Origin: Chloroflexota bacterium
GTDB taxonomy: Bacteria > Chloroflexota > UBA11872 > VXNJ01
DNA length: 64,000 nt
Direction of reading: 5' to 3'
NCBI GenBank assembly: GCA_965249595.1
Contig: OZ252242.1
Coordinates: 1,871,850-1,935,849, forward strand
Under the pieces are notes generated by a model, which was not told the DNA's origin, searched no databases, and was given only the letters and a program-made list of their open reading frames with translations. Below are positions 2,408 to 36,151 of the stretch, piece after piece (position 1 is the first letter of the stretch; each line of letters begins with the position of its first letter). Position numbers and translations under genes: made by a program.

Positions 2408-3190
2408 ATGGCCACAATTCCAGCCGCCGGTGACCGACTGGGCAAGACCCTGCGGGTCGATCGCTGGTGGATAGAACCGGTCCGATTCGGCCTGGTTTTT
2501 GGAGCATTTGTCGTCTATGCGAGCTGGGCCCTGCTACAGGGCGCCAACAACGATAACCACATCGCCGAACCATACCTTTCGCCCCTTTATTCGCCGCATT
2601 TTGCCGGCTTGATTTGGCCTGACTGGTGGCCCCAGTTCCTGCGCACCCCGGCTCTACTGATACTCTGGGCGCCGCTGTCCTTCCGCATTACCTGCTACTA
2701 CTACCGGCGCTCATACTACCGCTCGTACTTCCTCTCCCCGCCGGCCTGCGCGGTGGGTCGTCTAAACCTGCCTTACGCCGGTGAGCGGCGGCTGTTGGTA
2801 TTGCAAAACCTGCATCGCTATACGCTCATTTTTGCCCTCGCCCTGGTGGTGATCCTCAGCTACGACGCGGTTGTCGCCTTCTTCTTTGCCGAAGGCTTCG
2901 GCGTCGGCTTGGGCACCCTGATATTGCTCGCCAATGCGGTGGGGATTGCCGGATACACGTTCGGCTGCCATTCGTTGCGGCACCTAGTAGGCGGCCGCAT
3001 TGACTGTTTCTCCTGCTCGCTCGTTAGCCGTAGCCGCGGCCGCGCCTGGCGTTTTCTCACCCGATTTAACGAGCGGCACGGACAGTGGGCCTGGTACTCG
3101 CTGGTATGGGTCGCCCTAGCTGATGCCTACGTGCGATTGGTGGCCACCGGGACAATCACCGACCCGCGCTGGATCATCATCCCGGCATGA
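2408..3190 (+). CDS. Succinate dehydrogenase membrane anchor, mycobacterial Sdh1 (Rv0249c)-like
   Basis: Multi-TM protein with YLSPLYSP, FRITCYYYR and GCHSLRH motifs; overlaps the sdhA start (ATGA). Confidence 0.8.
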   Translation: MATIPAAGDRLGKTLRVDRWWIEPVRFGLVFGAFVVYASWALLQGANNDNHIAEPYLSPLYSPHFAGLIWPDWWPQFLRTPALLILWAPLSFRITCYYYRRSYYRSYFLSPPACAVGRLNLPYAGERRLLVLQNLHRYTLIFALALVVILSYDAVVAFFFAEGFGVGLGTLILLANAVGIAGYTFGCHSLRHLVGGRIDCFSCSLVSRSRGRAWRFLTRFNERHGQWAWYSLVWVALADAYVRLVATGTITDPRWIIIPA

Positions 3191-4989
3191 GCGTCAATCC
3201 CGAACGACTCGCCTACGACGTGTTGGTCATAGGCGCCGGCGGCGCCGGCCTGCGGGCCGCGCTCGCCGCCAGTTCGCTCGGCGCCAAGGTCGGGGTCGTT
3301 TGCAAGTCGCTGCTTGGCAAAGCCCACACCGTTATGGCCGAGGGTGGGATGGCCGCAGCGCTGCGCAACACCGACCCGCGTGACTCCTGGGAGGTCCACT
3401 TTCGCGACACCATGCGCGGCGGGAAACTGCTAAACCAATGGCGCATGGCCCAGATCCATGCCCTGGAGGCTCCCGACCGGGTCCGCGAACTGGAGGCCTG
3501 GGGGGCCGTGTTCGACCGCACTGATGACGGCCTGATCCTGCAGCGAAACTTCGGCGGCCATCGCTATCCCCGGCTGGCTCACGTCGGCGACCGCACCGGG
3601 CTGGAGATGATCCGCACGCTGCAAGATCACGGAATCCACCAGGGTCTCTCCGTTCATATGGAGGTCACCGTCACCAGCCTGCTAATTGACGATGGCCGGG
3701 TAGTGGGCGCCTTTGCTTACCAGCGCTCGGACGGAAAGCTTTTGGCCATCGCCGCCAAATCGGTAATCATCGCCACCGGCGGAGCCTGCCGGGCCTGGGC
3801 CATCAACACCAATTCCTGGGAGGGCACCGGCGACGGGCATGCCCTGGCTTGGCGCGCCGGAGCGGACCTGATCGATATGGAATTCGTCCAGTTCCACCCG
3901 ACCGGAATGGTTTGGCCGCCCTCGGTGCGCGGCATATTGGTCACCGAGGCGGTCCGCGGCGAAGGTGGAGTGCTGCGTAATCGGTCCGGTGAGCGTTTCA
4001 TGTTCGACAACGTGCCGGCGATGTTTGAAGGCGAATTCGCCGAAGACGAAAACGAGGCCCGCCGCTGGCTGGGCGGTGACAAATCAGCCCGTCGCCCACC
4101 CGAATTGCTCACCCGCGACGAGGTGGCAAGGGCGATATTGCGGCAGGTTGGAAACGAGGAGGGGTCACCGCACGGCGGTGTGTTTCTCGACATCGCCTCA
4201 CAGCGGTCGGCAAGCGACATCCGCTCGCGCCTGCCCTCGATGTACCACCAGTTTTCCGAATTGGCGCAGGTCGATATCACTCGCACACCAATGGAAGTCG
4301 GGCCCACCGCGCACTACATCATGGGCGGGATCCGCATCGATCCGGAAACCCAGCAATCAACAATGGCGGGATTGTTCGCTGCCGGCGAGGCCGCCGGTGG
4401 AATGCACGGCGCCAATCGACTGGGCGGCAATTCGTTGACCGACCTCTTGGTATTCGGTAAACGGGCCGGGCAGTTTGCCGCCGAGGCGGCCCTGGCCGCA
4501 GGCGAAATGCCGTCACTTTCAGAATCAATCATCGACGCCGCGACGACCGATGCGATGTCACCGTTTTCGCGCCCCAAAGATGAAAACCCATTCCAATTGC
4601 TCTCATCGCTACAGGAGATGATGGATCAAAAAGTGGGCATCATCCGCCGGGCCAGCGATCTGCAGTCAGCGCTCGGCGATCTTGACCAATACGCCGCGCG
4701 CGCCCAGCGCGCCGGGGTTGCGTCAGGCGGTTACTTTAACGTCGGCTGGCACCAAGTCCTCGATCTTGAAAGCGTATTCACGGTGGCCAGGGCCTCGGCC
4801 ATGGCCGGACTGATGCGCGAAGAGAGCCGGGGCGCCCATACCCGTGATGATCATCCGGCCGCTGAATCGGCCTGGGGCGACCGTTCAGTGATCGTCTCGC
4901 GCGCCGACGACGGTTCAATGTCTGTGCGCACCGAACAACTGGAAAAACCACCGGCCGACTTACAAGCCATCATCGACAGGGATAGTTAG
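3187..4989 (+). CDS. sdhA: Succinate dehydrogenase/fumarate reductase flavoprotein, intact
   Basis: GAGGAG, KAHTVMAEGG (FAD-His), QFHPTG, TEAVRGEGG, RDEVAR, HYIMGG and GANRLGGNSL all present. Confidence 0.95.
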   Translation: MSVNPERLAYDVLVIGAGGAGLRAALAASSLGAKVGVVCKSLLGKAHTVMAEGGMAAALRNTDPRDSWEVHFRDTMRGGKLLNQWRMAQIHALEAPDRVRELEAWGAVFDRTDDGLILQRNFGGHRYPRLAHVGDRTGLEMIRTLQDHGIHQGLSVHMEVTVTSLLIDDGRVVGAFAYQRSDGKLLAIAAKSVIIATGGACRAWAINTNSWEGTGDGHALAWRAGADLIDMEFVQFHPTGMVWPPSVRGILVTEAVRGEGGVLRNRSGERFMFDNVPAMFEGEFAEDENEARRWLGGDKSARRPPELLTRDEVARAILRQVGNEEGSPHGGVFLDIASQRSASDIRSRLPSMYHQFSELAQVDITRTPMEVGPTAHYIMGGIRIDPETQQSTMAGLFAAGEAAGGMHGANRLGGNSLTDLLVFGKRAGQFAAEAALAAGEMPSLSESIIDAATTDAMSPFSRPKDENPFQLLSSLQEMMDQKVGIIRRASDLQSALGDLDQYAARAQRAGVASGGYFNVGWHQVLDLESVFTVARASAMAGLMREESRGAHTRDDHPAAESAWGDRSVIVSRADDGSMSVRTEQLEKPPADLQAIIDRDS

Positions 4990-4991
4990 CC

Positions 4992-5750
4992 ATGGGCAAC
5001 AACGCAACTTTGCGGGTCCAGCGGGGAACCGCCCAAAACACCCACTTTGCCGAATACGAAGTGCCCCTCGCCGAAGGCACGGTTGTGCTTGACGCACTGC
5101 ACTGGGTTCAGCAGAACGCCGATCCTTCATTGGCCTGCCGTTGGAACTGCAAAGCCGGAAAATGCGGATCATGCTCGATGGAAATCAACGGCAAGCCGGC
5201 CCTGGCTTGCATGACCGGATTCCATGACATCGACACGGAGAAACCGGTCAATATCAGCCCGCTCAAGGCTTTTCCGGTCATTTCCGACTTGGTCAGCGAT
5301 GTCAGCTGGAATTATTCCGCCAAGCAATCGATTCGCAAGTTTTCACCGCGCGCTCAGACCCCCGATGAGCACATGGCCGGCGGCTGGAAAATGGCCCAGC
5401 AAGATATCGATCGCGTACAAGAATTTCGAAAGTGCATCGAGTGCTTCCTCTGCCAGGACGTGTGTCACGTCCTGCGCTCCAGCGCCCTCCATGAGCAGTT
5501 TGTCGGCCCGCGCCTGCTGGTCTATGCGGCCGCCCTGGAGATGCACCCGCTCGACGAATTGGACCGGCGCGAGGAGTTGCGGGAGGCCCACGGAGTGGGG
5601 TTTTGCAACATCACCAAGTGCTGCACCGAAGTTTGCCCGGAGGGAATCAAGATCACCGACAACGCCATCATTCCGCTCAAAGAGCGGGTGGCTGATGATG
5701 CCTATGACCCCTTGGCGAAGTTGTACAACAAGATTTTTGGTCGAATCTAG
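4992..5750 (+). CDS. sdhB: Succinate dehydrogenase iron-sulfur subunit, intact
   Basis: CKAGKCGSC...LAC, CIECFLCQDVC and CNITKCCTEVCP give complete ligand sets for all three clusters. Confidence 0.95.
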   Translation: MGNNATLRVQRGTAQNTHFAEYEVPLAEGTVVLDALHWVQQNADPSLACRWNCKAGKCGSCSMEINGKPALACMTGFHDIDTEKPVNISPLKAFPVISDLVSDVSWNYSAKQSIRKFSPRAQTPDEHMAGGWKMAQQDIDRVQEFRKCIECFLCQDVCHVLRSSALHEQFVGPRLLVYAAALEMHPLDELDRREELREAHGVGFCNITKCCTEVCPEGIKITDNAIIPLKERVADDAYDPLAKLYNKIFGRI

Positions 5751-5784: not shown

Positions 5785-6711
5785 TTAGATTCCCATCACA
5801 TCGACTAGTTCGCGAACCGAAGCCGCCGAGCGCCGCAATCCGTCCAACTCTTCGTCGGTCAGCTGGAAGTCCATCACCGCTTCAGCGCCGCCGGCTCCCA
5901 GTTTTACGAGGACTCCGACGACAGTGTCGTTGATGCCAAATTCGCCCTCAAGCAGCACGGCGCAGGGGTAAAGACGATTTTGGTCTAACAAGATCGAATC
6001 GACCATCATGGCGCAGGCCTCGCCGGGGGCCTCATATGCCCCGCCGATCTTCATATGCTCGACAATCTCGCCGCCGCCATTGCGGGTCCTATCAACGATG
6101 GCCGTCAACCGCTCGGCCGATATCAGCGATCGCACCGGCATGCCGGCCACGGTGGTGTAGCTGGGGACCGGCACCATCGTGTCGCCGTGACCACCGAGCA
6201 CAAACCCGGTTATGTCAGTAGGGGAAACACCAAGTTCCCAGGCCAAAAAGGTGCGGTAACGGGAAGAATCCAGGATGCCGCCCTGGCCGATGACCCGTTC
6301 CTTGGGCAGACCGGAGACCCGCAACGCCAGTTGGGTCATGGCGTCCATCGGATTGGAGAGGATGATCAATATCGTCTCCGGCGATCGTGTCACCAGTTCG
6401 CGCGTGACCTGCTCAACGATCGCCTTGTTGGCCAGCAACAGATCGTCGCGGCTCATGCCCGGCTTGCGCGGAAATCCCGAGGTAATGACACAAACCTGTG
6501 AACCGGCGGTCTCGTCGTAGGAGTTGGTGCCAAGGATGTTGGGAGGATACCCGCACAGTGATCCGGCGTGATTGAGATCTAGCGCCTTACCCTGCGCCAG
6601 ACCCTCCACGATGTCGATCAAAACGACGTCGGCATATCCACGCTCGGCCACCCTGCGGGCGGTCGAGCCGCCGGTGGCGCCGGCGCCAACAACTGTTACT
6701 TTAGGTCGCAT
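5785..6711 (-). CDS. mdh: Malate dehydrogenase (LDH-like)
   Basis: GAGATG, RKPGMSRDDLL, SNPMDAM, LDSSR and GGHGD motifs. Confidence 0.95.
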   Translation of the reverse strand: MRPKVTVVGAGATGGSTARRVAERGYADVVLIDIVEGLAQGKALDLNHAGSLCGYPPNILGTNSYDETAGSQVCVITSGFPRKPGMSRDDLLLANKAIVEQVTRELVTRSPETILIILSNPMDAMTQLALRVSGLPKERVIGQGGILDSSRYRTFLAWELGVSPTDITGFVLGGHGDTMVPVPSYTTVAGMPVRSLISAERLTAIVDRTRNGGGEIVEHMKIGGAYEAPGEACAMMVDSILLDQNRLYPCAVLLEGEFGINDTVVGVLVKLGAGGAEAVMDFQLTDEELDGLRRSAASVRELVDVMGI

Positions 6712-6769: not shown

Positions 6770-7483
6770 TTAGCGCGGGTCGGAAAAACCATTGACCGCG
6801 GCTGAGCGTTTCAACTTATCAATCTGGGCAAATGGAGCAAGCGAATAGGGACAGGGATCGCCAACGATGGATTCTGAATTGCAGGCCCAGACGCCGTCGC
6901 GACCAACCGCCAATTGCATTCGCTCGCGATCGAAATCGTCGCGCGTATCGGCCGCCAATCGGTAGGTCTTGAGCAGGAAACGGGCTCCGATGAAGTCGGA
7001 TGGCGGATGGCGCAGGGCTCCATCGCAAATCCCGCACATGTTGCAATATTCGCTGCGTTGCAGCCGGTCCAACTGTTCGCGGGTCATCTCCGTCGGCCGG
7101 CCCAAATCAACGCTTTCGGTGCGCTGCAGCCAGGGCCGCAGCTGGGCGATGCGGTTGGAGGCTATATCCGAATCGACCACCAGGTCGACGATTACCGCGT
7201 GGTTAGCCAGCGGCCCAATCCGGACTTCATCGTCCCCGGTTGGCAAAGGTTCACGCACCGGGAGCACCGGCCGCCCATTTAGGGCAACCGCCCCGATACC
7301 GGAAAAACCGCCGGGTTCGGCCTCGCGAAAGCGCAGACTGCAGTCTTGTTCATCACGGATTTGAATGAGCGCGTCCTGGACGGTCATCGCCGGTACCCGC
7401 CTGACCGAAAAGGATTGCCAGGTCGGGGACAATTCCAATTCGGGATCGAACCGGGAGATGCTCAGCACTGCCAGTGAAATCAT
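6770..7483 (-). CDS. Degenerate SdhB/FrdB-like Fe-S protein
   Basis: SdhB-like RFDPE, TVQDAL and VIVDLVVD; only CNMCGIC, one GVWAC Cys and the final CP are retained; ATG overlaps the upstream TGA. Confidence 0.8.
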   Translation of the reverse strand: MISLAVLSISRFDPELELSPTWQSFSVRRVPAMTVQDALIQIRDEQDCSLRFREAEPGGFSGIGAVALNGRPVLPVREPLPTGDDEVRIGPLANHAVIVDLVVDSDIASNRIAQLRPWLQRTESVDLGRPTEMTREQLDRLQRSEYCNMCGICDGALRHPPSDFIGARFLLKTYRLAADTRDDFDRERMQLAVGRDGVWACNSESIVGDPCPYSLAPFAQIDKLKRSAAVNGFSDPR

Positions 7484-9042
7484 GCTGCCACTCCCGCTTC
7501 CTGCGGGCTCAGGGATGCGGTTTGGTCGGTCACCACGGCCGCCCCTTGCTGCCGCAAAACTATGTGCATCGCTTCTTGGTCGTCGCCCTCCGGGTGGTCC
7601 GAGCGACGGTGACATCCACGTGATTCGGTTCGACTTTGGGCACCGGCGATGACGGCGCTGGCGGTTATTGCGGCCCGCCGCAGTTCGATCAACCGAACCA
7701 ATTCGAGGTTGTAGTGCGACCCATTCCAGGCCGGGGCGGCACGAGCGGCCGAGTCGCTGATTTCGGCGACCAATAGAGCGGCCTCGCCGAGACCATCGGC
7801 GCTGCGGGAGAGACCGACAAAGTCCGACATCACCGCCCTTAGGCGGCCAAACAGGGCGCCCGGATCGACCGAATCGTCGCCCCTGAAAGCCAGTTGCAGC
7901 CTGGCCTGGGCGTCTATCCGGGCCGATTCGGGCAGGTTTGCCGGCCGCGGCGCAATCCCGTTGGCGACGGATTTGGCGGAATCGACCAGGTCAAGAATCG
8001 CGTTGCCGGGCAGCAAGCCGCCACCAAGCAATGGCGAGGCGGCCGCCTCGCCGGCTACATAAAGCCCATCGACGCCGGTGCAGGGGTTAACTCCGCCAAG
8101 GGCGAAATGAACTGACGGGACCAGCGGGGATTTGAGGTCATCGCCGAGCAGTGCCGCAATTTCAGGAGCGACCAATTCAATTTCATCGGCAAAGGGGGAA
8201 AAATCGGCAGCCGGTGACGAACTCTCTTCAATTGCCAGGGCCAAAGACCCATGGGTCAATCCGGGCGCTGCGTCCAGCCCGGTGATTCCGCGTCCGGCCA
8301 TCGCCAGCGCGCCGCCAATGGCTGCGCCTTTGACTGAATCAGACGGGTGATCGATCCCGGCGGCCCATTCGATCATTTCCATATCGGCCAGTTGGGAACC
8401 GGCCGTTAAGGCCAGCGCCTGGCTGGTTCCGACGGCAAAACCCAGATTGTCGCTTACAGCAAAGAGGCCGCCCAGCGAACCATCGGTTAGCAACACGTTG
8501 CCGCTGGCGAAACCCTGCGCCAGGCCGGAGCGGATGTTGTAAGCAGTCAGGCCGCAGATTCCCGATTCGTCAGTGTGGAGATCCAGTGGCACCCATTCAG
8601 TAAAGACGTCGATCGAATAGGCGGCGACCCGGTCAATTAACGCATTGAGCACCGCCCGTCCGCTCCACCATCCGGCGGCCACGGTGTAGGCCACGCTGTT
8701 ATTGGCAAGTTTGATTTGGGCCAGACCGGCATCGTCGGAACGGGCAAATGCCGTTCCCATGTGCTCAAGTTCGACAACTACGGCGGCGGCGGCGGAACCG
8801 GCCGACTCTATCTGCTGCGGTTGTGCCAAACCCGCGCCGGCGGCGGTGCTGTCGGCAATGAAAGCCGCCATCTGATCGTCGCCGCTGGGGGCGTTGATCC
8901 CGTCGCGCAGATTGCCGTCGGGCGACTGGGCCAGAGCGGTCCGGCTGACGATGGCTACGTTTAGTTGCGCCTCAGCGGCGGCGATTGCGGCGCGTAGTCC
9001 GGCGATCCCGCCGCCCACGACAACCAGGTCGTACTCGATCAA
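7480..9042 (-). CDS. Degenerate SdhA/FrdA-like FAD-binding protein
   Basis: GGGIAG Rossmann motif, DMEM, HFALGG, GLYVAGE and ESRGCH present; catalytic His/Arg residues mostly replaced. Confidence 0.8.
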   Translation of the reverse strand: MIEYDLVVVGGGIAGLRAAIAAAEAQLNVAIVSRTALAQSPDGNLRDGINAPSGDDQMAAFIADSTAAGAGLAQPQQIESAGSAAAAVVVELEHMGTAFARSDDAGLAQIKLANNSVAYTVAAGWWSGRAVLNALIDRVAAYSIDVFTEWVPLDLHTDESGICGLTAYNIRSGLAQGFASGNVLLTDGSLGGLFAVSDNLGFAVGTSQALALTAGSQLADMEMIEWAAGIDHPSDSVKGAAIGGALAMAGRGITGLDAAPGLTHGSLALAIEESSSPAADFSPFADEIELVAPEIAALLGDDLKSPLVPSVHFALGGVNPCTGVDGLYVAGEAAASPLLGGGLLPGNAILDLVDSAKSVANGIAPRPANLPESARIDAQARLQLAFRGDDSVDPGALFGRLRAVMSDFVGLSRSADGLGEAALLVAEISDSAARAAPAWNGSHYNLELVRLIELRRAAITASAVIAGAQSRTESRGCHRRSDHPEGDDQEAMHIVLRQQGAAVVTDQTASLSPQEAGVAA

Positions 9043-9143: not shown

Positions 9144-9176
9144 GACTGGCGGCTCGATCGCCCGGCGACGCCAATC
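9144..9176 (-). terminator. Stem-loop immediately after sucD
   Basis: Minus-strand GATTGGCG...CGCCAGTC stem with only a weak U tract. Confidence 0.35.
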
Positions 9177-10036
9177 TAGATGCGACTGGCAATCAGATCT
9201 CCCACCTGGTCGGGATAGTCGGCGACCGGAACGCCAACCTGGCGTAGTGCCGCAATCTTGTCGGCAGCCGCGCCCGAGCCGCCCGATACGATGGCCCCGG
9301 CATGCCCCATGCGGCGCTCGGGCGGGGCCGCCCGACCGGCGATGAATGACACGACCGGTTTGGTGACTTGTTGGGCGATGAATTCGGCGGCATTCTCCTC
9401 GTCCTGACCACCGATTTCGCCGATAAGGACGACGGCGTCGGTATCGGGATCGTCCTCAAAGAGCTCCAGGGCATCGTTGAAATTGGTCCCGATGAGTGGA
9501 TCACCGCCGATCCCCAGGCACAAGCCCTGGCCGATGTCACGGTTACTTAACGCTTGAATAACCTCATAGGTAAGGGTCCCGGAGCGCGAAACCACGCCGA
9601 TCCGGCCGGGCATGGCAATCGAACCCGGGATGATCCCCAGCTTGGTTTGGCCGGGCAGGATCAGGCCCGGGCAGTTTGGCCCGATGACCCGCGCCCCGCG
9701 GGCCGCGGCAAAGGAGAGCATCCGCGCCGAATCGAGGACCGGTATGCCCTCGGTTATGGCAACGATCAGCGAAATGCCGGCCGCGGCCTGTTCGCAAACC
9801 GCATCAGCGGCCGCAAATGCGGGCACAAACACCACTCCGGCCCGCGCACCGGAGTCGGCAACCGCGTCGCGCACACTGTCAAACACTGGCACGCCGTTTT
9901 CAGTTGTGCCACCTCGCCCCGGAACCACTCCCGAAACCACGTTGGCTCCGTAATCGAGCATTAGTCGCGTATGGAAGGATCCTTGGCGGCCTGTTATGCC
10001 CTGCACCAGAATCGGCGTGGCAGCGTCTACCAGCAA
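9176..10036 (-). CDS. sucD: Succinyl-CoA synthetase alpha subunit
   Basis: [30 protein letters not shown] and RMGHAGA (phospho-His); TTG start with GGAG. Confidence 0.95.
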
Positions 10037-10039
10037 GAT

Positions 10040-11173
10040 CTAGGCTCCGCTTGCGGCAATTGCCGCCTGCACCGCGCTGATCATGCCGCGGTGGGCTGAG
10101 ATCCCGGCAGCCCGCAAAATCGCGAGCCCCTCCTGTTCGTTGGTGCCCACCAAGCGGGTTACCAACGGCACCGAGCGGTCCAGGCTGGCCAGGGCCGCCG
10201 TTATCCCGCGGGCCACATCGTCACAGCGGGTGATACCACCGAATATGTTGACCAGCACGACTTTCACGCCGGGATCGGAGAGTATGATCTCCATCGCCTG
10301 GCGAACCTGGGCGGCATCGGCGCCGCCACCGACATCGAGGAAGTTGGCCGGCTGGCCGCCTTCGCTGACGATCACGTCCAGCAACGCCATTGCCAATCCG
10401 GCGCCGTTGACCATACAACCGATGGATCCGTCCAACTTCACGTAGGCAATGCCCGCGGCGCGGGCCGCTGCCTCCTGTGCCGTCTCCTCTTCCGGATTGC
10501 GCAGGGTGGCCAGGTCGGGGTGCCGGAACAGCGCCGAGTCGTCTAACGTGATCTTGGCGTCGATTGCCGACAGTTCCCCCTGGGCAGTGACCACCAGCGG
10601 GTTGATCTCAACCAAAGAGGCATCGTGATCCTCCAAGCAGCGCACCGTTTGGGCCGCGATATTGGCAAAGCGGGACACCAAATCCCCGGGGATGCCCAGG
10701 TCGTAGCCAAGTTGACGGCCCGCATATGGGGCCAGACCCTGGCCGGCGGGGCAATAAACGCGTTTTATCGCCGCCGGCTGCTCAGCGGCAACCTGTTCAA
10801 TGTCGACCCCTCCGGCGGCGGAGGCCATGACCATGACCTGCGCGCGGGCCCGATCCGGCAGGGCTGCCAAGTAGAACTCGGAGGCGATTTCAACCTGTTC
10901 GGCAACCATCAAGCGGTCAACCGAGTGCCCGCCAATTGAAAGCCCCAAGATTTCGGCGGCGGCGGCGCTGGCCGCGGGCGGATCGTCAGCCAGGCGGATA
11001 CCGCCAGCCTTGCCGCGCCCGCCGGAGAGGACTTGTGCTTTAACGACCACCGGGCGACCCAATTGAGCCGCCGCCGCCGCCGCCTCGGCCGGAGTACCCA
11101 CGACCACGGCGTTAGGAACCGGCAGGCCGCTTGCCGAGAGCAGCAGCCGGGATTGATGTTCGTGCAACTTCAA
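10040..11173 (-). CDS. sucC: Succinyl-CoA synthetase beta subunit
   Basis: KLHEHQ, KAQVLSGGRGKAGG, EINPL, NGAGLAM, NFLDVGGG and NIFGGI; likely TTG start at 11173. Confidence 0.95.
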   Translation of the reverse strand: MKLHEHQSRLLLSASGLPVPNAVVVGTPAEAAAAAAQLGRPVVVKAQVLSGGRGKAGGIRLADDPPAASAAAAEILGLSIGGHSVDRLMVAEQVEIASEFYLAALPDRARAQVMVMASAAGGVDIEQVAAEQPAAIKRVYCPAGQGLAPYAGRQLGYDLGIPGDLVSRFANIAAQTVRCLEDHDASLVEINPLVVTAQGELSAIDAKITLDDSALFRHPDLATLRNPEEETAQEAAARAAGIAYVKLDGSIGCMVNGAGLAMALLDVIVSEGGQPANFLDVGGGADAAQVRQAMEIILSDPGVKVVLVNIFGGITRCDDVARGITAALASLDRSVPLVTRLVGTNEQEGLAILRAAGISAHRGMISAVQAAIAASGA

Positions 11174-11347
11174 AGTGGGCAAAACTCGGATGCTAAAGGG
11201 CTTTCCAACGTAAGGCCCAACTATTTTTAGTTTCGACGATCCATGGCCCAATTGGCCGCCATGCCGCCCGGGCTTGGGGTAAGCCGTTCCCTAGAATCGC
11301 CCGACCCTACGTTACGCCTCGGGCGCGTAGCAGAGCAGGTGGTGGCC

Positions 11348-34929: not shown

Positions 34930-35075
34930 CTACAAGGAGAGGCCCCAGTCGGACCCCCGTTTAACGGGGGCCACGAGCGGGGAATGCGGTTCGATTCCGC
35001 AGCGGACGCGCCACCGTGATTGACCGGGTGCTGGGACTGCCAGCTTCCGTCATGAGCCGGGCTACCGGGCCGGGG
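34930..35075 (+). ncRNA. Cobalamin riboswitch
   Basis: GGGAA-TGCGG TTCGATT CCGCA, GCCACCGTGA and GAGCCGGGCTACC match the B12-element core; lies upstream of btuFCD. Boundaries approximate. Confidence 0.85.
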
Positions 35076-35209
35076 TCTTCGCCCAAACGCCGTTCGCGCA
35101 AGCAATCTAGACATTTTTTTCAGATCTCGACGGCCGGGCGCGCCGGCGGCGTTGGCGTGCTCGTCGCCAGGGCTGCAACATGCAAACCCTCCTTCAACCT
35201 CTCTAGGCC

Positions 35210-36151
35210 ATCGCCGGTCGAACGGCATTTCTGCTGACGCTGGCCGGATTTTTGCTAATGGCCTGTTCACCATTCGCCGACCCGGACGATTCAGCGGGTC
35301 AGGGCGAGACAGTCGATTCAACCGGCAAGACCGTTACGGCCCCGCGCGCGCCCGATCGACTGATCTCGCTGGCCCCGTCGGCAACCGAGTTGCTGGTGCT
35401 GCTCAACGCCGGCGAGCTATTGGTCGGAGTCGATGATTACAGTCCGCTTGAGGGCCTCTCCGGCGAAGTCGCCAGGGTTGGGACCTTTCCACCGGATTAC
35501 GAACTGATCGCCAGCTTGGACCCCGATCTGATCATCGGAGCGTTCATTACCCCGGCGGAGCATGTCGACCGCCTGGAATCACTCGGCTTTCCGGTCTTTA
35601 TTGCCGACAGCCGTTCGGTTGAGGGAATTCCGGCAGCCTTAGAGGCCTTGGCCGGCGCAGTGGACCGGGAAGACGCCTACGCCGAGATCGCCGATTCGTT
35701 CAACGACCGAATGGCGGCAATCGCCGACGCCTCGTCAACCGACGGCGACGCGCCGACCATCTATTGGGAGATAGACGCTACCGACCCGGCGCGGCCATTT
35801 GTGGCCGGCCCGGGCTCGCTGGCCAACGACGTTATTCGTTTGGCTGGCGGCGTGAACGTTTTCGCCGATCTGACCGATCCATATCCACAGGTATCGCTTG
35901 AAGCGGTGTTGGCCCGCAATCCCGACCTGATCGTCCTCGGCAACGCCCCCTGGGGCGAGAGCATCGCCACCCTGGGCGGGCGCCCCGGTTGGGCTAGCCT
36001 GCGAGCGATTTCCAATCGCCAGGTCTTGGAGCTGTCCGAATCGCAGGCCGATGCCGCATCCCGGGCCACGCCGGCGATGCTTGACCTGATCGAATACATG
36101 GCCGATTCACTCTCAGCGGCGCAGGTCAAATCATTACCCGCCGCGGCCTGA
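35210..36151 (+). CDS. btuF: Cobalamin/iron-siderophore ABC substrate-binding lipoprotein
   Basis: RLISLAPSATE, LVGVDDYS, LDPDL and EAVLARNPD; lipobox LMAC. Start unresolved because of an in-frame TAG at 35204. Confidence 0.8.
   Translation: MAGRTAFLLTLAGFLLMACSPFADPDDSAGQGETVDSTGKTVTAPRAPDRLISLAPSATELLVLLNAGELLVGVDDYSPLEGLSGEVARVGTFPPDYELIASLDPDLIIGAFITPAEHVDRLESLGFPVFIADSRSVEGIPAALEALAGAVDREDAYAEIADSFNDRMAAIADASSTDGDAPTIYWEIDATDPARPFVAGPGSLANDVIRLAGGVNVFADLTDPYPQVSLEAVLARNPDLIVLGNAPWGESIATLGGRPGWASLRAISNRQVLELSESQADAASRATPAMLDLIEYMADSLSAAQVKSLPAAA

Follow-up and report, generated by a model that had tools for sequence, protein, structure and literature searches.

A 64,000-nucleotide stretch of a Chloroflexota genome (assembly GCA_965249595.1, contig OZ252242.1, positions 1,871,850 to 1,935,849), hereafter called the window, was analysed around a gene that we named sdhB'.

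6770..7483, minus strand: sdhB', a 237-residue paralogue of SdhB/FrdB with a single predicted [4Fe-4S] cluster (basis: open reading frame (ORF), Pfam, PDB, AlphaFold 2, and dN/dS, the ratio of nonsynonymous to synonymous substitution rates)

SdhB and FrdB are the iron-sulfur subunits of succinate dehydrogenase (SDH) and fumarate reductase (FRD), the enzymes of complex II. In the best reading of the evidence, sdhB' appears to encode a repurposed one-cluster protein and not a working SDH subunit. The original prediction, made from the letters of this DNA, had proposed selection for a single-cluster protein on the basis of the ligand pattern. The gene was found to be one half of a pair with a disabled flavoprotein, and a complete SDH is encoded next door. 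This changes the picture that the original prediction had drawn.

Identification of sdhB' and its product

The ORF at 6770-7483 on the minus strand encodes 237 residues with the N-terminus MISLAV. The ATG start shares an ATGA overlap with the TGA stop of sdhA', the gene before it, and GGGAG is located 8 nucleotides upstream. The length of 237 residues and the start are identical in 9/9 members of the sdhB' family. With the shared start, the ATGA overlap and the GGGAG, the coordinates assigned to the gene by the original prediction are right. A longer ORF of 281 residues from an ATG at 7615 was considered as the gene and rejected, because it overlaps the 3' end of sdhA' and the homologues all begin with MIS or MIA.

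A Pfam Fer2_3 match was obtained for SdhB' with an E-value of 1.4e-13. No Pfam Fer4 model matched its C-terminal half. A phmmer search against the PDB aligned SdhB' over its full length with mitochondrial and bacterial SdhB/FrdB chains, with E-values from 4.8e-22 to 8.4e-16. An AlphaFold 2 model was built from a 121-sequence alignment, which consisted mostly of ordinary SdhB. Its predicted local distance difference test (pLDDT) score was 93.3, and Foldseek gave a template modelling (TM) score of 0.87 to E. coli SdhB (2wp9_B/1nek_B). This model superseded one made from the 10-sequence family alignment, which was unusable with a pLDDT of 50.8. Homology and the predicted two-domain fold, with an N-terminal domain resembling plant ferredoxins and a helical C-terminal domain resembling bacterial ferredoxins, place SdhB' among the complex II iron-sulfur subunits by descent.

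In the NCBIfam comparison, the broad subfamily model TIGR00384 was passed with 126.8 bits against a cut-off of 88. In contrast, SdhB' was below every curated equivalog. The best one was NF009226 (114.5 vs 344), and the score for NF009052, the type of the resident SDH, was 41.3 vs 256. SdhB' belongs to the SdhB superfamily but does not qualify as a complex II subunit by function.

Iron-sulfur cluster ligands of SdhB'

Escherichia coli K-12 SdhB, taken from NC_000913.3, was aligned to SdhB' as the ligand reference. We take its ligands to be C55/C60/D63/C75 for [2Fe-2S], C149/C152/C155/C216 for [4Fe-4S] and C159/C206/C212 for [3Fe-4S]. The motif positions are assigned to the same clusters in the SDH structure of Chloroflexus aurantiacus (PMC12663545). 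The alignment gave the following correspondence.

[2Fe-2S] ligands: E. coli C55/C60/D63/C75 correspond to E56/S61/G64/V76, 4/4 lost
[4Fe-4S] ligands: E. coli C149/C152/C155/C216 correspond to C147/C150/C153/C211, 4/4 kept
[3Fe-4S] ligands: E. coli C159/C206/C212 correspond to L157/C201/V207, 1/3 kept

The corresponding sites in the DNA are listed below.

7256..7330, minus strand: former [2Fe-2S] loop, F52-V76 (FREAEPGGFSGIGAVALNGRPVLPV), near-invariant within the clade, with E56, S61, G64 and V76 now at the ligand positions
7025..7045, minus strand: Cys motif I, C147-N-M-C150-G-I-C153 (E. coli C149/C152/C155), three [4Fe-4S] ligands
7013-7015, minus strand: L157, replacing the fourth Cys of motif I (E. 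coli C159, a [3Fe-4S] ligand), by alignment
6863..6883, minus strand: former [3Fe-4S] half of motif II, C201 (E. coli C206) kept and V207 (E. coli C212) lost
6848..6853, minus strand: C211-P212 (E. coli C216-P217), fourth [4Fe-4S] ligand, by alignment

The codons of the four [4Fe-4S] Cys are located at 7043-7045, 7034-7036, 7025-7027 and 6851-6853. The alignment bore out the ligand count that had been proposed from the DNA: all four [4Fe-4S] ligands are retained (C147/C150/C153/C211), all [2Fe-2S] ligands are gone (E56/S61/G64/V76), and two of the three [3Fe-4S] ligands are gone (L157 and V207), the retained C201 being peculiar to the window genome. The peptide strings quoted there are all present; only the placing of CNMCGICDGAL had to be corrected, from 7025-7045 to 7013-7045, its low end having been 12 nucleotides off.

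The pattern was consistent across the family. The only invariant Cys in the nine family members are the four [4Fe-4S] ligands, and in 5/9 of the proteins these four are the total Cys content. C211-P212 does not vary within the family, nor among the 102 ordinary SdhB of one alignment. E56, S61, G64 and V76 occupy the former [2Fe-2S] positions in 9/9 members. C201 is confined to the window genome and is L, V or I in the eight orthologues, so that the three [3Fe-4S] ligand positions hold no Cys in any of these eight. Across the clade the former [3Fe-4S] positions are filled with V/L/I, L/V/I and A/V, which looks like a hydrophobic fill. Further, the residues of E. coli SdhB in the quinone-site region, P160, W163/W164 and H207, are replaced in SdhB'.

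In the 19/19 members of three related clades described below, the four [4Fe-4S] Cys are invariant and the other ligand positions decay. The expectation that orthologues would show no random loss of these Cys was therefore confirmed. The pattern is also non-random in number, as had been claimed. If 5 of the 11 ligands were kept at random, the chance that these include all four [4Fe-4S] ligands is 7/462 (p = 0.015, window protein), and the chance of keeping exactly those 4 of 11 is 1/330 (p = 0.003, orthologues). For comparison, all 11 ligands are present in 232 of the 267 SdhB-type proteins fetched.

Two other elements are strongly conserved. The Cys-free segment R-E-(A/S)-E-P-G-G-(F/Y/W)-S-G (7313-7342, minus strand, region of residues 48-57) hardly varies within the window and P0010 clades. 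D154 (7022-7024), the Asp that immediately follows the third [4Fe-4S] Cys, is invariant in the 19/19 proteins. From the four invariant Cys at canonical positions and the confident fold, SdhB' is predicted to bind one cubane [4Fe-4S] cluster.

The partner flavoprotein SdhA'

7480..9042, minus strand: sdhA', a 520-residue SdhA/FrdA paralogue, translationally coupled to sdhB' (ATGA)

The Pfam scan of SdhA' gave a partial FAD_binding_2 match (positions 1-253 of 414) and Succ_DH_flav_C. In comparison with E. coli SdhA and the orthologues, SdhA' retains the dinucleotide fold (GxGxxG), GEAA and ESRGxH, and its capping domain lacks about 60 residues. In E. coli SdhA we take H45 to be the residue of covalent flavin adenine dinucleotide (FAD) attachment, and the dicarboxylate site to include H242, T254/E255, R286, H354 and R399. 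The H45 position is Pro in the window SdhA', His in most of the aligned window-clade orthologues (six retain it) and Gln in one of them (L009). H242 is replaced by Ala and R399 by Leu, and the T254/E255 motif is gone. The R286 position is His or Leu, with His in the window protein. H354 is kept in the window SdhA' and is Ala in L004 and L009. All NCBIfam scores of SdhA' were below the cut-offs, the best being 192.9 vs 567.3. SdhA' does not provide the partner that a working subunit requires, one with the covalent-FAD His and the dicarboxylate site. To judge from these residues, SdhA' is catalytically disabled for succinate/fumarate chemistry.

Family distribution, order of cluster loss and selection

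The window family consists of nine members at 90% clustering, with identities of 66-71% to the window protein. When 1.84 billion cluster representatives (50% identity) were searched with a profile, only three clusters came up before the scores drop to ordinary SdhB. The same score gap, from 1e-75 to 1e-50, appeared in a second profile search. The three clades are as follows.

Window clade, Chloroflexota metagenome-assembled genomes (MAGs): [2Fe-2S] ligands none; [4Fe-4S] four; [3Fe-4S] none (one in the window protein)
P0010 clade, marine metagenomes including a Tara Oceans contig: [2Fe-2S] third Cys only; [4Fe-4S] four; [3Fe-4S] none
P0011 and eight relatives, Chloroflexi MAGs: [2Fe-2S] four; [4Fe-4S] four; [3Fe-4S] at most the first Cys of motif II

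The clades are only 38-44% identical to each other, and they share one operon position, (icd)-sucC-sucD-sdhA'-sdhB'-mdh-(fumC). A 121-sequence neighbour-joining tree recovered the 19 degenerate proteins as monophyletic in 97% of 60 bootstraps and joined the window clade to P0010 in 100%. Given this nesting of the clades, [3Fe-4S] loss would precede [2Fe-2S] loss. The most parsimonious order is that the [3Fe-4S] cluster was lost first, in the common ancestor, the [2Fe-2S] cluster second and the [4Fe-4S] cluster never.

The nearest relatives of SdhB' are found in the two-cluster sister clade (P0011 and P0159-P0166), with 35-39% identity and E-values from 1e-75 to 1e-94. Like the window clade, its members occupy the same operon position, have lost the equivalents of E. 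coli C159 and C212, and carry C-D at the third Cys. Unlike the window clade, they keep all four [2Fe-2S] Cys, and their SdhA' is much less degraded. It scored 550.7 vs the TIGR01812 cut-off of 567.3 and keeps T254, E255, R286 and H354, without H45, H242 and R399. Judged by such residue counts, the partner SdhA' decays in parallel with SdhB' across the clades. One locus of this clade (L014, 5090-13254) carries a longer operon, icd-sucC-sucD-sdhA'-sdhB'-mdh-fumC. The sole public name in the family, the NCBI entry '2Fe-2S iron-sulfur cluster-binding protein [Chloroflexi bacterium]', also belongs to this clade. No second SDH was found within 10 kb of the pair in the P0011 clade, and it may be that the two-cluster form still serves its genome as the working enzyme. 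In the P0010 clade, a genuine SDH adjoins the pair and is of a different class, with FrdC/FrdD-type anchors.

Ligand loss was also observed in unrelated SdhB-like proteins. P0061, P0064, P0113 and P0118 have independently lost [3Fe-4S] ligands and kept those of [2Fe-2S] and [4Fe-4S]. P0046 and P0140 have lost part of the [2Fe-2S] ligands, and P0155 is degenerate at all three cluster sites. Loss of the membrane-proximal cluster seems to recur among SdhB-like proteins.

Selection was measured by the Nei-Gojobori method on orthologous genes from six related genomes, using pairs with unsaturated synonymous divergence. The dN/dS ranges are listed below, where genuine sdhA and sdhB are the genes of the neighbouring complete SDH.

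sdhB': 0.09-0.12
sdhA': 0.14-0.19
genuine sdhB: 0.08-0.11
genuine sdhA: 0.09-0.13
mdh: 0.06-0.10
sucD: 0.10-0.15

The constraint on sdhB' equals that on housekeeping genes of the tricarboxylic acid (TCA) cycle. In the related genomes, identity to the window copy was 66-69% for SdhB' and 67-69% for SucC; it was only about 51% for SdhA' and about 80% for the genuine SdhA. The sequences support the view that selection maintains a protein in which the [4Fe-4S] site alone is left. The SdhA'B' pair shows homology to an enzyme, loss of essential residues and purifying selection, which together mark it as a pseudoenzyme so far as sequences can tell.

Operon and resident succinate dehydrogenase

10040..11251, minus strand: sucC, first gene of the operon (orthologous-locus scans)
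9176..10036, minus strand: sucD, upstream in the same operon (Pfam CoA_binding/Succ_CoA_lig in the orthologous loci; orthologues 73-77% identical)
5785..6711, minus strand: mdh, malate/lactate dehydrogenase family, last gene of the operon (Ldh_1_N/Ldh_1_C in the orthologous loci; orthologues 79-83% identical)
2408..5750, plus strand: sdhC-sdhA-sdhB, a complete class-F set (Mycobacterium smegmatis Sdh1 type) that converges on the mdh end of the operon

The genes sucC-sucD-sdhA'-sdhB'-mdh form an operon, the order of which is kept in seven Chloroflexota genomes and in the two sister clades. The related genomes are Chloroflexota MAGs with chromosomes of 2.1-2.4 Mb. There are gaps of 133 nucleotides between sucD and sdhA' and of 58 nucleotides between sdhB' and mdh. 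No terminator-like site was detected in the internal gaps of the operon, these two included, and the promoter and terminator scan yielded nothing else that was informative. A membrane anchor or acceptor module was absent from the sdhA'B' operon in every clade; anchor genes nearby belong only to a separate genuine SDH.

The resident SDH was identified subunit by subunit. Its SdhC, a single anchor of 260 residues, matched 7d6v_C at 2.3e-48 without a Pfam or NCBIfam match. Resident SdhA passes NF005866 (905.7 vs 819) and resident SdhB passes NF009052 (371.5 vs 256), the latter with all 11 iron-sulfur ligands present. By these matches, the resident sdhCAB is assigned as the genuine SDH of the genome.

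The class-F SDH of the Sdh1 type is best known from Actinobacteria. It is present here in Chloroflexota. The classification scheme to which class F belongs has been reviewed (PMC10238741). In one related Chloroflexota MAG (L001, 15386-16534), an IS605 OrfB/TnpB gene with a Cas12f-like TNB domain is inserted just past sdhC, and it is absent there in L004.

SdhA'B' was also considered as a recent duplicate of the resident sdhAB, and this was rejected. SdhB' matched 7d6v_B, the Sdh1-type chain, at only 5.4e-07 vs 4.8e-22 for the mitochondrial type, and its NF009052 score was 41 bits vs 256. SdhB' is therefore far closer to the mitochondrial/proteobacterial type of SdhB than to the Sdh1 type.

Discussion

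Our preferred account, held at about even confidence, is that SdhA'B' is a retired soluble pseudoenzyme pair with one isolated structural [4Fe-4S] cluster, serving as a scaffold or regulatory protein of the TCA operon. SdhB' would be the iron-sulfur half of a retired SDH/FRD module. It would be made together with SdhA' from the operon, most likely giving a soluble SdhA'B' heterodimer. The SdhB' fold would be kept and one cubane [4Fe-4S] cluster would be held by C147, C150, C153 and C211. The [2Fe-2S] site would have been replaced by the conserved Cys-free loop, and the [3Fe-4S] site filled with aliphatic side chains. The ancestral SDH/FRD of the TCA operon may have been displaced by an SDH that was laterally acquired or separately inherited, and its remnant kept for another role. 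The class-F SdhCAB next door would then perform the SDH job. The remaining cluster would most likely be a structural keystone that links motifs I and II of the C-terminal domain. How stable SdhA'B' is would then depend on the supply of iron and iron-sulfur clusters, on O2 and on oxidants, and a sensory use would be a small further step.

Three losses bear on catalysis. SdhA'B' should be unable to act as an SDH or FRD because SdhA' has lost the dicarboxylate-binding and proton-transfer residues, because the [2Fe-2S] relay between the flavin and the [4Fe-4S] cluster is gone, and because there is no [3Fe-4S] cluster, quinone site or membrane anchor. Physiological electron tunnelling has a limit of about 14 Å. 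In the Chloroflexus SDH the centres are placed in line, with about 9.8 Å from FAD to [2Fe-2S] and less than about 10.6 Å between all neighbouring centres (PMC12663545). By analogy, without the [2Fe-2S] cluster the [4Fe-4S] cluster would sit more than 20 Å from the flavin, past the tunnelling limit. The loss of the relay would therefore cut the [4Fe-4S] cluster off from the flavin, so that SdhB' is unlikely to carry electrons within an SDH-like chain. Likewise, with the [3Fe-4S] cluster, the quinone-site residues and the anchor gone, there would be no electron exit to quinone. The selection for a single-cluster protein that had been put forward for this gene thus gained support from the 19/19 invariant Cys and the dN/dS of 0.09-0.12, whereas the electron carrier offered there as one possible function is improbable within such a chain. 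Homology, fold, ligand pattern, purifying selection, operon context, the catalytic residues lost from the partner and the order of cluster loss come from the data; from these we infer cluster binding, the heterodimer, the electrical isolation of the cluster and its structural or stability-switch role.

SdhB' was compared with known systems. It resembles canonical complex II SdhB (E. coli SdhB/FrdB and mitochondrial SDHB; 1nek_B, 2wp9_B and 1kf6_B) in its full-length homology, predicted fold and [4Fe-4S] ligands, and in following and being coupled to an SdhA-type gene. It differs in having no [2Fe-2S] ligands, at most one [3Fe-4S] ligand and replaced quinone-site residues, no anchor gene in its operon, a partner without catalytic residues, and no equivalog passed. 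M. smegmatis Sdh1 (class F, PDB 7d6v) represents the type of the resident SdhCAB, and SdhB' is not of that type. L-aspartate oxidase, yeast Osm1 and Shewanella flavocytochrome c3 (PMC10238741) are likewise derived from SdhA and work away from the membrane, as soluble homologues that have no quinone half-reaction. However, these enzymes keep the dicarboxylate site and have no SdhB-type partner, and SdhA'B' is the reverse.

Yeast Tim18 is a paralogue of SDHD in the TIM22 translocase, and the SDHC-Tim18 dimer binds no haem (PMC10238741). Like SdhA'B', Tim18 is a complex II paralogue retained after the loss of a cofactor site, and its role is non-respiratory. Tim18 is a eukaryotic membrane subunit with a known new role, whereas in SdhA'B' both soluble subunits would be re-used together with one cofactor selectively kept. 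The split SdhB of Euglenozoa (PMC2663770), a natural rearrangement, shows that SdhB consists of two separable modules, an N-terminal [2Fe-2S] half and a C-terminal half. There, the three clusters are all present on two polypeptides of an active enzyme; SdhB' keeps one predicted cluster. Full-text searches of open-access literature, and the 2023 review of non-canonical complex II, yielded no account of an SdhAB pair of paralogues in which one cluster is left.

Several points weigh against the retired-pair account. The AlphaFold 2 model is probably biased towards the canonical fold, as its input alignment was mostly ordinary SdhB, and cluster binding in SdhB' is itself a prediction. The scaffold tolerated the loss of two clusters, which suggests that folding does not intrinsically need a cluster and that the retained one may do more than a structural job. 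The conservation of the Cys-free loop (REAEPGGFSG) and of D154 hints at a function beyond that of a scaffold. In the two-cluster clade no second SDH was found within 10 kb, so that the ancestor of the module may have retained enzyme activity. Finally, no interaction partner or regulatory output of SdhA'B' was found in the operon contents and domain scans.

Other explanations were considered. A possible, rather doubtful one is a neofunctionalised redox protein, the low-potential [4Fe-4S] cluster of which would exchange single electrons with an external partner, independently of the wire from FAD to quinone. It would account for the strict conservation of four ligands in a scaffold that shed two other clusters. 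It also agrees with the two-cluster sister, which with its less degraded SdhA' has the look of a soluble flavo-iron-sulfur enzyme that uses an external acceptor, and with the several unrelated SdhB-like representatives that also lost only [3Fe-4S] ligands. However, the aliphatic fill of the [3Fe-4S] cavity would bury the cluster on the would-be docking side, no clade has added a candidate partner gene to the operon, and the flavin-site residues vary within the clade. A dedicated sensor, also offered in the original prediction, is unlikely. Here the state of the [4Fe-4S] cluster would report O2, oxidants or iron and switch SdhA'B' to modulate TCA enzymes, by analogy with aconitase/IRP1 or FNR. 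A predicted isolated cluster under purifying selection in a protein without a catalytic site, and the co-transcription with sucCD and mdh that the operon arrangement implies for each clade, are in its favour. All-Cys, buried ligation is not typical of labile sensor clusters, however, and the ligands of SdhB' are all Cys and, in a canonical fold, would be buried. In addition, Pfam and NCBIfam detected no DNA-binding, RNA-binding, kinase or other signalling domain in SdhA' or SdhB', and no evidence of interaction with any target was obtained. By the same analogy, it is comparably improbable that SdhA'B' would be a novel type of iron-sulfur regulatory pseudoenzyme, a fossil complex II head whose isolated [4Fe-4S] senses oxygen, oxidant or iron and controls SucCD and Mdh.

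That the two gene sets adjoin each other in both the window and the P0010 clades could point to an alternative or auxiliary subunit of the resident class-F SDH, such as an assembly factor, decoy or regulator. We consider this very unlikely. The neighbouring genuine SDH differs in class between the clades (Sdh1-type SdhC vs FrdC/FrdD), and therefore a conserved specific interaction is unlikely. SdhB' is of another SdhB lineage than the resident one (7d6v_B 5.4e-07; NF009052 41 bits vs 256), and the surface that would contact the anchor has lost the [3Fe-4S] cluster as well as the quinone-site residues. Least credible of all is a decaying duplicate, that is, a pseudogene in progress in which the Cys pattern is a snapshot of random loss. 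The lost cofactor ligands and catalytic residues would fit such decay, as would the identity of SdhA' to its relatives of about 51% vs about 80% for the genuine SdhA. Against it, the frames are intact and do not differ in length across seven genomes and the two sister clades, dN/dS is 0.09-0.19, the same four Cys are present in 19/19 proteins (p of about 0.003 for one lineage alone), and the family persists across clades that are 38-44% identical. A pseudogene under random decay was ruled out by the dN/dS values and the ligand invariance.

The SdhA'B' pair is of interest beyond this genome. The three clades together with ordinary SdhB provide a natural series from three to two to one cluster in one protein lineage, in which the central [4Fe-4S] site always survives. 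The family may allow the low-potential [4Fe-4S] cluster, the least understood step of the complex II wire, to be studied by itself, by spectroscopy and electrochemistry, without overlapping signals of the [2Fe-2S] and [3Fe-4S] clusters. Both soluble subunits of a respiratory enzyme appear to have been kept after losing its chemistry, under selection as strong as that on housekeeping genes, which suggests a function tied to the TCA operon. Since SdhB' passes TIGR00384, the pair can be miscounted as a second SDH or FRD in metabolic reconstructions of Chloroflexota MAGs, marine ones included.

Additional features of the window and of related proteins

The listed start of sucC is probably about 25 codons too far upstream, because the orthologues align from residue 22-27. 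As listed, the ORFs of sucC (minus strand) and aconitase (plus strand) overlap head to head by 9 nucleotides, at 11243-11251. The orthologues of the two genes align from about residue 22-35. The real starts of both are probably downstream, so that a divergent promoter region of some 150 bp would lie between them.

Among the SdhB-like proteins collected, P0014 (334 residues) contains an internal tandem duplication of about 95 residues over the first Cys motif, possibly an assembly artefact. In addition, a cobalamin riboswitch (Rfam RF00174) was detected at 34930-35087 on the plus strand, with 43.4 bits against a gathering threshold of 31.5, upstream of the ORF at 35252-36151.

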